From Candidatus Hadarchaeum sp. (lineage in GTDB: Archaea; Hadarchaeota; Hadarchaeia; Hadarchaeales; Hadarchaeaceae), in contig DYFS01000002.1 in NCBI GenBank assembly GCA_020725055.1, positions 622 through 64,621 on the forward strand: a stretch of DNA of 64,000 bases, given 5' to 3'. Shown piece after piece: positions 13,889 to 38,413 of this stretch. Position numbers and translations under genes: made by a program. Each line of letters begins with the position of its first letter. Position 1 is the stretch's first letter. The notes beneath the pieces were generated by a model. That model saw nothing but the letters and a program-made list of their open reading frames with translations. It searched no databases and was not told the origin of the DNA.

Positions 13889-13923
13889 ATTTCGGTGACA
13901 CCTGTCACCGATATTTTTTTTTT
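13889..13923. promoter_or_regulatory. Repeat copy 1: 26-bp near-palindrome ATTTCGGTGACACCTGTCACCGATAT plus a T10/A10 tract, 19 nt upstream of the gltX ATG
   Basis: The core CGGTGACA-CC-TGTCACCG (13893-13910) is a perfect 8-bp inverted repeat. The A-run on the gltX strand sits where a TATA box would. The palindrome lies between that run and the start codon, a typical operator position. Confidence 0.4.
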
Positions 13924-13925
13924 GC

Positions 13926-14210
13926 TCATGCCAGCTCCTCTATAGCATAGATTTTTGCATTTTTACAACCATAATATTTGGCAAGCTCCATCACTGCCAT
14001 AGCTGTGGCCATGCGTTTAGTCGCGATAACACTGTACTGCAACATCCAACCATCTTGCATCAACTTAAAAATCCGTTTCAAATTATCAAAAAATTTTGGT
14101 GGTATCTTCTTGCCTTTGAAATCATAAATGATGAGCTTTAACTTTCTTGGCTTGGGGTCTACTTTTTCGACTGTTAAGCATATCTTGTCAGCGGTACTGC
14201 GTCTCCCCAT
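13926..14210 (-). CDS. Small basic protein (94 aa from the second Met) with a ferredoxin-like beta-alpha-beta pattern resembling Cas2/VapD. Function unknown.
   Basis: An AT-rich islet contains a clean 300-nt ORF. KLKLIIYDF...NLKRIFKLM...MLQYSVIA is reminiscent of the Cas2 beta1-alpha1-beta2 core. The start codon overlaps repeat copy 2, with TTTAAAAAATAT about 25-30 nt upstream, which suggests a leaderless promoter. Confidence 0.35.
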   Translation of the reverse strand: MGRRSTADKICLTVEKVDPKPRKLKLIIYDFKGKKIPPKFFDNLKRIFKLMQDGWMLQYSVIATKRMATAMAVMELAKYYGCKNAKIYAIEELA

Positions 14211-14239
14211 TTCGGTGACACCTGTCACCGATATTTTTT
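14209..14239. promoter_or_regulatory. Repeat copy 2 (identical 26-bp palindrome plus T6/A-rich TATA-like tract) overlapping the start codon of the small ORF
   Basis: ATTTCGGTGACACCTGTCACCGATATTTTTT at 14209-14239. The module layout is the same as copy 1. Confidence 0.4.
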
Positions 14240-14255
14240 AAACACCCATTTAAAG

Positions 14256-14285
14256 ATTTCGGTGGTGGGTATTACCGATATTTTT
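14256..14285. repeat. Repeat copy 3: degenerate copy that keeps the outer arms, ATTTCGGTG...ACCGATATTTTT
   Basis: ATTTCGGTGGTGGGTATTACCGATATTTTT lies 16 nt after copy 2, just downstream of the GGPP synthase stop. Confidence 0.4.
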
Positions 14286-37517: not shown

Positions 37518-38413
37518 AACCTGCCGCTGGCCGCCATTTCCTCCAGCCGTCTGATCCGCTCCTCGGTAGACGGATGGGTCGAGAAAAGCTCCTTCCTAAA
37601 CGGGTTCACAATAAACATGTGCGAAGTCGATGTGTTCCCTTGCTCAATGGGTTTGCTCCTCGCTGCCGCTTGTAACTTCCGCAAGGCGCCTGCTAGCGCG
37701 AGGGGTTTCCGAGAGACTCTGGCCCCATCTCGGTCCGCCCCGTATTCACGCCCGCGGGATATCGAGAGCCTGACCAACATGGCGGCGAAAGGTATCAAAA
37801 CTATTCCGATGAGCGCTAGGGCTGAGGCGCCCCCACCACGACCCCTGCGCCCGCCAGCAAACATCGAAAAATACATCACGTAGGAGATCACCGCACCTAT
37901 AATCGCCGCCATGGTGTTGATCAGCATGTCGCGGTTTTTGATGTGGGCGAGCTCATGCCCCAACACGCCCTCAAGCTCATCGTCGTTCAGCAGCTTCATC
38001 GCACCATCGGTTACGGCAATCACCGAGTGGGAGGGGGAACGACCCGTTGCGAAGGCGTTCGGCGTGTCCATCGGAACGATCGCGACTTTGGGTTTCGGCA
38101 GGCGTTCGCTTAACGCCAAGCGAGTGACCATCTGGTGAAGCTTGGGCTGCTCAGCCTCACTAACGACTTTCGCGCGGTAAAGCTTCAGCACCCACCTATC
38201 AGCATACCAATAGATGAAGAGGTTCATCAACACGGCGATGGAGAGGAAGATGCCGAGGGTGTAGGTTACATTAATACCGGTGAGGTAACCTGCGGCCAAA
38301 CCTATCAACATCAAAAGCCCTGTAAGCGTGCCCATCAAGAGCGCCGTTCGCGCGGTTCCACCCATGATTATCCCATCGTTTCTTTCGTTTTCATCGTTAA
38401 AAAACTTCCTCAA
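37514..38413 (-). CDS. htpX: HtpX-like M48 zinc metalloprotease
   Basis: TM segments, HELAHIKNRD (HExxH), and a downstream EYGADRDGA glutamate. The start is probably at an internal Met near 38365, since the listed start overlaps the upstream gene. Confidence 0.8.
   Translation of the reverse strand: MRKFFNDENERNDGIIMGGTARTALLMGTLTGLLMLIGLAAGYLTGINVTYTLGIFLSIAVLMNLFIYWYADRWVLKLYRAKVVSEAEQPKLHQMVTRLALSERLPKPKVAIVPMDTPNAFATGRSPSHSVIAVTDGAMKLLNDDELEGVLGHELAHIKNRDMLINTMAAIIGAVISYVMYFSMFAGGRRGRGGGASALALIGIVLIPFAAMLVRLSISRGREYGADRDGARVSRKPLALAGALRKLQAAARSKPIEQGNTSTSHMFIVNPFRKELFSTHPSTEERIRRLEEMAASGRF

Follow-up and report, generated by a model that had tools for sequence, protein, structure and literature searches.

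Proteins of the Cas2/VapD superfamily comprise about 90−100 amino acids (aa) arranged as beta1-alpha1-beta2-beta3-alpha2-beta4. One of them, BPSL1038 of Burkholderia, is a stand-alone Cas2/VapD-like protein that occurs without CRISPR or cas1 (PMC10491678). Here, we describe a gene whose product matches this superfamily in size and in predicted topology, located in a 64-kb stretch of DNA from Candidatus Hadarchaeum sp. (contig DYFS01000002.1, positions 622 to 64,621), which was analyzed as a whole and is referred to as the window. The gene, called gene X, encodes 94 aa and is bracketed by three copies of a 26-bp palindrome, termed boxes A, B, and C. The most likely reading of gene X is that of a small protein that binds nucleic acid, regulates itself, and is built on a Cas2-type fold; the bracketing of a gene by private palindromes is unusual.

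Among archaeal autoregulators, Ss-LrpB of Sulfolobus has three 15-bp palindromic boxes in its own promoter. The gene X locus likewise carries several dyad boxes at its own gene, one of which spans the predicted TATA-to-start interval, and cooperative occupancy would be expected. In contrast to the Ss-LrpB type, the gene X protein has no helix-turn-helix or ribbon-helix-helix (RHH) domain, one box lies past the stop codon, and the box sequence belongs to this one locus instead of a regulon. NikR, which joins an RHH domain to an ACT-like ferredoxin domain, binds two half-sites about two helical turns apart over the promoter. Its structural matches to the gene X protein are weak (about 100 columns, TM-scores about 0.46); the N-terminal segment of the gene X protein has ~20 residues and one helix, not enough for an RHH domain, and metal-binding His/Cys residues are absent. 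Type III toxin-antitoxin systems (ToxIN, CptIN, and TenpIN) share with gene X the presence of at least two direct repeats of ~36−47 nt upstream of a small gene with RNase relatives. However, the gene X repeats are mostly non-contiguous, each has a TATA-like arm, an extra copy lies past the gene, and neither ToxN nor AbiE is related to the protein. REPtrons (RAYT with REP palindromes) and the ends of IS200/IS605 elements also combine a small ferredoxin-like protein with flanking palindromes that it perhaps recognizes, but gene X has neither an HUH motif nor a conserved His, shows no dispersed copies, and is accompanied by direct rather than inverted boxes.

The 26-mer ATTTCGGTGACACCTGTCACCGATAT is present in two exact copies in the window, at 13889−13914 and 14209−14234, and was matched in 0 of 100 dinucleotide-preserving shuffles with 3 mismatches allowed. 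Exact identity extends to 31 nt (13889−13919 and 14209−14239), and a third, degenerate copy at 14256−14286 is 74% identical, which bears out the triplicated palindrome with A/T-rich arms that an earlier note on this DNA had placed at 13889, 14209, and, in degenerate form, 14256. The half-site AATATCGGT occurs three times in the 64 kb, against 0.3 expected, and always at the gene X locus. A candidate fourth site, TCGGT-N10-ACCGA at 38007, lies inside a coding sequence without the flanks and was discarded as a chance match. Over 13900−14300 the GC fraction drops to 0.38−0.40, compared with 0.55−0.70 in the flanks, in agreement with the islet of ~40% GC reported before.

Gene X (13926..14210, minus strand; isoelectric point (pI) 9.8) is the middle gene in the order idsA, gene X, gltX, all on the minus strand. 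Along the gene strand, the TGA of idsA (geranylgeranyl-diphosphate synthase; 14289−15287, minus strand, stop codon 14291−14289) is followed by cgt, AAAAA (14282−14286), and box A (14256..14281, minus strand; ATATCGGTAATACCCACCACCGAAAT), a degenerate palindrome that starts 7 nt past the idsA stop codon. After a further 21 nt comes box B (14209..14234, minus strand), a perfect dyad, ATATCGGTGACAGGTGTCACCGAAAT, which ends on the A and T of the gene X ATG (14210−14208). An A/T-rich TATA-like box, TTTAAAAAATAT (14231..14242, minus strand), is situated 22−33 nt upstream of this ATG, its final four bases being the outer arm of box B. Gene X then runs to its TGA (13928−13926), followed by GC, a run of ten A (13915−13924), directly after it box C (13889..13914, minus strand), and, 57 nt later, gltX. 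Box C is identical to box B and starts 12 nt past the gene X stop.

The same layout, with box A, box B ending in the ATG, gene X, and box C after the stop, is common to every locus examined. Thirteen loci make up the close subfamily, and their genomic contexts are of three kinds: idsA-X-gltX (the window, L142, L132, and L136), radA-X (L001, L002, L003, L120, L125, L126, L135, and L137), and a third one (L124, L133, and L138). Wherever the sequence of a related locus reaches far enough, box A is found 67−128 nt upstream of the ATG. Twelve of the 13 close loci have the start of box B at −24 relative to the ATG; the exception is L126, with a frameshifted N-terminus and a box B that ends 2 nt earlier. 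Box C lies 1−12 nt past the stop codon in every locus with an intact 94-aa frame and downstream sequence; the pseudogene L137 has it after the original stop codon, which is no longer in use. The L001-type radA loci (L001, L002, L120, L135, and L137) additionally carry a box D. Decay is seen in two members, L137 with a premature stop at codon 52 (3001−3156) and L126 with its frameshifted N-terminus (555−600); palindromes still flank the gene in both. The closest IdsA homologues carry the names Hadesarchaea or Hadarchaeaceae, and one gene X homologue, L120, comes from a Hadesarchaea metagenome-assembled genome.

Relatives from another archaeal lineage, 35−37% identical to the gene X protein, keep this layout with a different palindrome, GGGCGTAATTACGCCC (ATATGGGGCGTAATTACGCCCTTTAT). 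Two copies are upstream of the gene and one just past the stop, with a Shine-Dalgarno sequence between box B and the ATG, and the neighbors encode archaellin, Alba, and TFIIB-like proteins. In these distant loci (L127−L131) the palindrome has three copies only in 10 kb. In L127 (4255−4791) and L129 (4124−4660), gene X is divergently paired with a gene for a 178-aa protein with a TFIIB repeat and a C2H2 zinc finger, a pairing kept in two species.

When 150 kb of Hadesarchaeal DNA were scanned with a weight matrix, boxes were located beside gene X only, apart from one solo copy; 874 kb of control DNA gave 6 weak matches. Of the two outcomes that had been considered for a wider motif search, a common intergenic repeat is not what these 150 kb contain, and neither do they hold a set of copies upstream of other genes. 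A pattern scan of genome contigs with ATATCGGT-N10-ACCGAAAT (16 fixed bases) returned mostly chance matches and yielded L120, and a metagenome scan with alignment A2 gave 6 loci. In two Methanomassiliicoccales genomes (L040, 5193−5218; L046, 4789−4814), the sequence ATATCGGTTTGCCGG(A/C)GGACCGAAAT occurs ~45 nt upstream of an Asp/Asn-tRNA synthetase gene; no gene X homologue is found within 8 kb of it, and a TATA region matched by chance is the probable explanation.

Between the window and L142, whose gene X proteins are 93% identical, 1 of 78 box positions changed, against 10 of 54 spacer positions and 11 of 94 third codon positions. Pooled over four pairs, the change rates are 8.3% for boxes, 18.3% for spacers, and 19% for third codon positions. 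Box B itself is unchanged in L142, although the protein differs there at 7% of residues. Across 28 distinct box copies, 86.7% of the dyad cells are complementary and 6 of 11 dyad pairs have changed on both sides; pair 8−19, for example, is T-A in 16 copies, G-C in 12, and broken in none. This covariation was reached by 0 of 500 shuffles. Furthermore, copies within a locus agree at 22.7 of 26 positions, compared with 17.8 of 26 for same-position copies of different clades (p = 2e-6), and box sequence and gene X protein vary jointly from lineage to lineage. The boxes are therefore under selection and in concerted evolution, and the likeness within a locus is what would be expected if one locus-encoded factor read all of its boxes. 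Long-range pairing of box A with box C in the RNA fold of the whole cassette is a trivial outcome of the palindromes and was not used.

Three box blocks are conserved, ATATCG at positions 1−6, AGGT at 12−15, and CGAAAT at 21−26. They are 10 bp apart, which places them on one face of B-DNA. Predicted fold energies are −7.70 kcal/mol for the sense and −7.43 kcal/mol for the antisense RNA (p = 0.46), without a clear sign of RNA structure specific to one strand; this would fit duplex DNA better than RNA as the form in which the boxes are read. Individual boxes depart from the common pattern. The core of box A in the window (14256−14281) has a central CC instead of GG and fits the other A boxes better when inverted (3 vs 6 mismatches); box C of L126 (about 848−868) likewise has a central CC and a better inverted fit to other boxes, and the A/T flanks of both stay in the standard orientation. 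In L125, box C (1824−1849) is of the type CGAGGGT...CCCTC, compared with CGGTG...TACCG in its boxes A and B, which suggests exchange between cassette types at a box. Boxes C and D of the L001-type radA loci are separated by a spacer (~57 nt, GCAACCAC...CTATAAATGCTAGCGTTGGTGC; L001 4311−4372, L120 1447−1505, L135 about 1753−1812) that is conserved between genomes without an open reading frame and may represent a small transcript or a remnant.

The 94-aa reading frame is a real gene of a sizeable archaeal family. Its eleven close homologues show 60−93% identity; nine members are exactly 94 aa long, two are truncated, and one extends further with a divergent C-terminus. With the exception of the 79-aa P0010, which was miscalled past a frameshift, all close homologues begin with MG(R/K)RS, and pairwise ratios of nonsynonymous to synonymous substitution rates range between 0.05 and 0.29. 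A profile search of 1.8 billion cluster representatives retrieved 92 relatives at E<=1e-3 (counted at 50% identity), most of them 87−105 aa long, and a second search retrieved 197 clusters at the same threshold, nearly all about 94 aa. The earlier note had named a lack of homologues and of expression as grounds against its proposal; homologues are present. None of the 197 clusters has a Pfam domain or an informative name. Relatives were absent from IMG/VR and from phage and plasmid collections, PHROGs and NCBIfam returned nothing usable, and Rfam gave a single meaningless microRNA match far under threshold. No description of the family or of its bracketing architecture was found in Pfam, NCBIfam, PHROGs, PADLOC, or the literature searched. 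Ten residues are invariant in 68 sequences (S5, A7, Y29, D30, F31, N43, Q58, Y59, S60, and Y80), basic residues are conserved at positions 3, 4, 9, 32, 35, 39, and 46, and the median pI of the family is 9.1, with the gene X protein at 9.8.

AlphaFold2, run with the alignment of 68 sequences, returned a confident model (predicted local distance difference test (pLDDT) 93, predicted template-modeling score 0.85), whereas a model from only 9 sequences was discarded (pLDDT 57.6). The former predicts an N-terminal helix (residues 6−13), conserved, basic, and carrying MGRKS, followed by beta1-alpha1-beta2-beta3-alpha2-beta4, the topology of Cas2. Of the folds that had been put forward for comparison, an RHH domain does not fit the N-terminal segment of ~20 residues. 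In this model the invariant D30 sits at the C-terminal end of beta1; Y29-D30-F31 and the Q-x-S of beta2 align with YD(I/V) and Q-S-V-F of Cas2, the former in HMMER alignments as well.

The window protein scores 12.6−12.8 bits against Pfam PF09827, under the gathering cutoff of 23.8, and 28 of 71 family members match this model at E<=1 (best E 4.4e-5). With the 5027 PADLOC models, nearly all recurrent matches are to Cas2 models (16−42 of 68 members, best 2e-4), Cas2g being matched by 42 of 68, compared with 1−3 members only for other models. These matches are weak but recurrent, and they uphold the Cas2-like ferredoxin pattern that had been read from the translation. When the PDB was searched with a profile of the diverse alignment A3, 8 Cas2 entries appeared at E 0.3−1.3, with YD(I/F) and Q-x-S-V as the aligned motifs. 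The narrower A4 alignment gave no Cas2 match, and because that signal was lost we do not take Cas2 homology as established. Foldseek against the PDB gave no match at E<=1e-3, its weak top matches being Cas2, ACT, and NikR domains. On these grounds we assign the protein a Cas2-type fold and take it for a probable remote relative of Cas2 and VapD rather than an established member. Unlike Cas2, it is not associated with cas1 or a CRISPR array. No cas gene is among the called neighbors at any locus, and neither tandem repeats nor a CRISPR array occur in the 64-kb window, the lack of an array having been noted before for this DNA.

In archaea, the distance from TATA box to transcription start is usually about 25 nt. 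With the TATA-like box 22−33 nt upstream of the gene X ATG, transcription would therefore start at the ATG or a few bases before it, and the mRNA may be leaderless or nearly so. The box core occupies positions 3−20 nt upstream of the ATG and would fill the TATA-to-start interval. This geometry, with box B between the A/T box and the ATG, fits the leaderless or very short-leader promoter that had been suggested. Other genes in the window have TATA-like boxes near −38 with a Shine-Dalgarno sequence at −12 to −6, and a few have them near −27 to −32 without one; in position, the TATA-like box of gene X matches those of the leaderless-type genes in the window. In the distant relative L127, where the order is box, Shine-Dalgarno sequence, and ATG, the same rule puts the start just past box B and before the Shine-Dalgarno sequence. 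The position of box B would thus be the classic one for an archaeal repressor.

On this basis, we tentatively read the gene X locus as a self-contained, autoregulated DNA-binding module. The gene X protein would bind, probably as a dimer, the 26-bp dyad boxes that bracket its own gene. Occupancy of box B, between the TATA-like box and the start, would block TBP, TFB, and RNA polymerase and shut off transcription of gene X. Boxes A and C, with D in some lineages, would serve as auxiliary sites for cooperative binding or for looping around the 320-bp gene, and may also insulate gene X from idsA and gltX. Duplex binding with autorepression at box B is favored because the boxes lie on the promoter, are conserved along one helical face, show no strand bias, and are private to a locus that encodes a basic protein. 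The data show the architecture with its conservation, the constraint on the boxes, their covariation and concerted evolution, the locus restriction, the fold, and the basic charge; binding, dimerization, repression, and the start position are inferred. Indirect support for sequence-specific binding comes from the boxes being inherited, and changing in concert, with the gene.

Several observations weigh against this reading. The spacing between boxes A and B is variable (36, 38, 43−47, 57, and 103 bp) and not in helical phase, and a box right after the stop codon is unneeded for simple autorepression. The protein has no recognized DNA-binding domain; its fold is of a general ferredoxin-like kind, and Cas2 and VapD, the nearest relatives, are better known as nucleases or scaffolds than as regulators that recognize a specific sequence. 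A conserved AGGT center and conserved flanks around a covarying stem are, moreover, the classic signature of an RNA or single-stranded DNA hairpin recognized by a protein, and the excess of sense-strand G-T over A-C mismatches (36 vs 22, p = 0.087) is a weak hint of sense-strand pairing.

The last two points belong to the rival that survives best, in which the boxes act in RNA. They would form transcript hairpins, bound or cleaved by the Cas2/VapD-like protein, at the 5' end or Shine-Dalgarno region of the gene X mRNA, and both this mRNA and that of idsA would carry one at the 3' end. The outcome would be autoregulation of translation or stability, or a repeat RNA that neutralizes an RNase in the manner of type III toxin-antitoxin systems. 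The relatives of Cas2 and VapD include endoribonucleases, and in RNA terms the boxes have a covarying stem, a conserved loop AGGU, and conserved A/U flanks, with the sense-strand excess of G-T just mentioned. The center of box B is always AGGTG or GGGTG, Shine-Dalgarno-like and 8 nt before the ATG; boxes A and C lie just past stop codons; and the upstream copies of L127 form a direct 38-nt tandem repeat just before the gene. However, the sense and antisense fold energies are alike, and several copies are much stabler in antisense, such as box C of L133 (−7.4 kcal/mol in sense vs −15.2 kcal/mol in antisense). The stem position 10−17 is unpaired in 16 of 28 copies, both upstream copies of L129 have G-G and T-C mismatches in mid-stem, and the TATA-like arm on each box would put the transcription start downstream of the hairpin. 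There is also no antitoxin gene, and the third copy is downstream of the gene, unlike in ToxIN. We consider an RNA-level function unlikely, although it is the rival to be taken most seriously.

A rival that we hold to be improbable, and that stands next in order, treats the boxes as att-like recombination sites whose central GG dinucleotide gives polarity. Gene and boxes would insert into, or excise from, a solo box by means of the encoded protein or a host recombinase. In L139, whose IdsA is closest to that of the window (88%), idsA is directly followed by gltX, with no gene X and exactly one box, tgtAAAAATATAGGGGACAGGTGCCCCCGAAATTCAAAGGGCTCAACTTTAATG (5004−5035). This solo box is one mismatch away from box A of L132 and has the right flank of box C; it is as much like a deletion product of homologous recombination between A and C as like an unoccupied att-like site. 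The gene X protein of the window is 67−68% identical to those of L132 and L136, compared with 84−86% for IdsA, its boxes are of the GGTGAC type vs the GGGGGAC type there, and its cassette has a GC content of 40% vs 49−50%. Judged by these sequences, the window cassette is not a positional orthologue of the L132 and L136 cassettes in any simple sense. The differing types at one site and the deviant GC suit mobility, as do three intergenic contexts with sharp boundaries in one subfamily, the identity of B and C over 31 nt, and the box C of L125, which is of another type than its A and B.

Other observations speak against mobility. The window cassette type occurs at the same site in L142 with B and C again identical and the box types kept, so the identity of B and C is maintained and not recent. 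Synteny is long-lived, the radA context spanning protein identities of 51−97%. There is one copy per contig and there are no dispersed boxes in the 150 kb, no recombinase or transposase motif was recognized, and the lack of a conserved His means that the protein is not an HUH enzyme. Relatives are missing from the IMG/VR, phage, and plasmid collections, and the solo box is equally explained by the A x C deletion. The more distant relatives L140 and L141 have other genes after idsA and no box.

Less probable again is a two-part unit of a Cas2-fold protein and a private palindromic repeat, which the protein would recognize as a hairpin or a recombination site; such a unit might be a mobile or selfish cassette, or an addiction module of repeat RNA and RNase.

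We also weighed the boxes as purely cis-acting promoter, terminator, or insulator elements for host factors, kept alike by gene conversion, with a protein of unrelated function. The TATA-like arm on each box would suit such elements, as would the T runs (archaeal terminator signals) after the C boxes of L001, L120, and L135, and gene conversion alone could explain the concerted evolution. Sites for host factors should, however, recur at other genes, which these boxes do not. The palindrome differs by lineage yet stays with the gene X family down to 35% identity, which argues for a partner inherited together with the boxes and leaves this explanation very doubtful.

An equally doubtful proposal extends the role of gene X to a regulon, with box C as the operator that ties expression of the essential gltX to the gene X protein. 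It can draw on five genomes with a box ahead of gltX (the window, L142, L132, L136, and L139), on its retention in L139 though gene X is absent at that site, and on the end of the box about 12 nt upstream of the gltX TATA-like element, where a bound protein could hinder TFB and TBP. The earlier note had likewise considered an operator duplicated onto gltX, and had placed the copy at 13889 in the same TATA-palindrome-ATG arrangement as at gene X. This does not hold. On the minus strand, gltX has a TATA-like element of its own (AACTTTAAT, 13877−13869), a leader, a Shine-Dalgarno sequence GGTGAT (13840−13835), and a TTG start (13831−13829) 57 nt downstream of box C, and because of this promoter and start the operator reading fails. 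Read from ATG 13870, the frame is interrupted by a stop at its fourth codon in L136 and shifted in L139. The sequence GCGGTGATCG(G/A)TTGAAAG is shared by the window and L132, L136 and L139 each deviate from it by a single substitution, and the gene caller took the TTG start in L132. The start of gltX is thus probably TTG 13831 and not ATG 13870, a correction that leaves gltX not wired to the palindrome as first proposed. L132, L136, L139, and L142 share this leader; L141 keeps part of it, and there the TATA-like element TCAACTTTA(A/T)T persists although no box is present. Furthermore, box C trails the gene X stop in all contexts, including those in which the next gene is unrelated or convergent (L001, L120, and L135); its arrangement with gltX is unlike that of box B with gene X; and no other gene in the 64 kb has a box.

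The remaining candidates can be dismissed briefly: a CRISPR array by its irregular spacings (start to start, 47 and 320 nt here, 36−104 and about 311−320 nt elsewhere), an integron gene cassette by a box without the GTTRRRY core and flanks without an integrase, REP/RAYT or IS200/IS605 by the absence of a conserved His and boxes only at the gene in 150 kb, and a VapD-VapX toxin-antitoxin pair by the position of gene X alone between unrelated housekeeping genes with no conserved small partner reading frame.

A few features of the neighborhood remain to be described. The gltX product of 562 aa has full glutamyl-tRNA synthetase Pfam matches, and the leader with TCAACTTTAAT upstream of gltX is conserved across Hadesarchaeal genomes, one of them without the palindrome. 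In L132, which shares the gene order of the window, an IS605-type OrfB/TnpB (Cas12f-like) element (5711−6908) lies between gltX and the L7Ae gene. A 593-aa open reading frame of the window (14634−16415, plus strand), antisense to idsA and the RNase J gene, is a high-GC artefact and not a gene.

As a whole, the bracketing of a gene by private palindromes is unusually regular at these loci and general across archaeal lineages. If hairpins are the target, the module would represent a new small unit with ties to Cas2, either mobile or engaged in processing RNA or DNA. The two-part unit, if real, would parallel in free-living form the pairing of Cas2 with the CRISPR repeat, with a bearing on the origin of that pairing. 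If the boxes are bound as duplex DNA, the Cas2-type ferredoxin fold would act here as a sequence-specific regulator, and gene X would stand for a new class of archaeal transcription factors.

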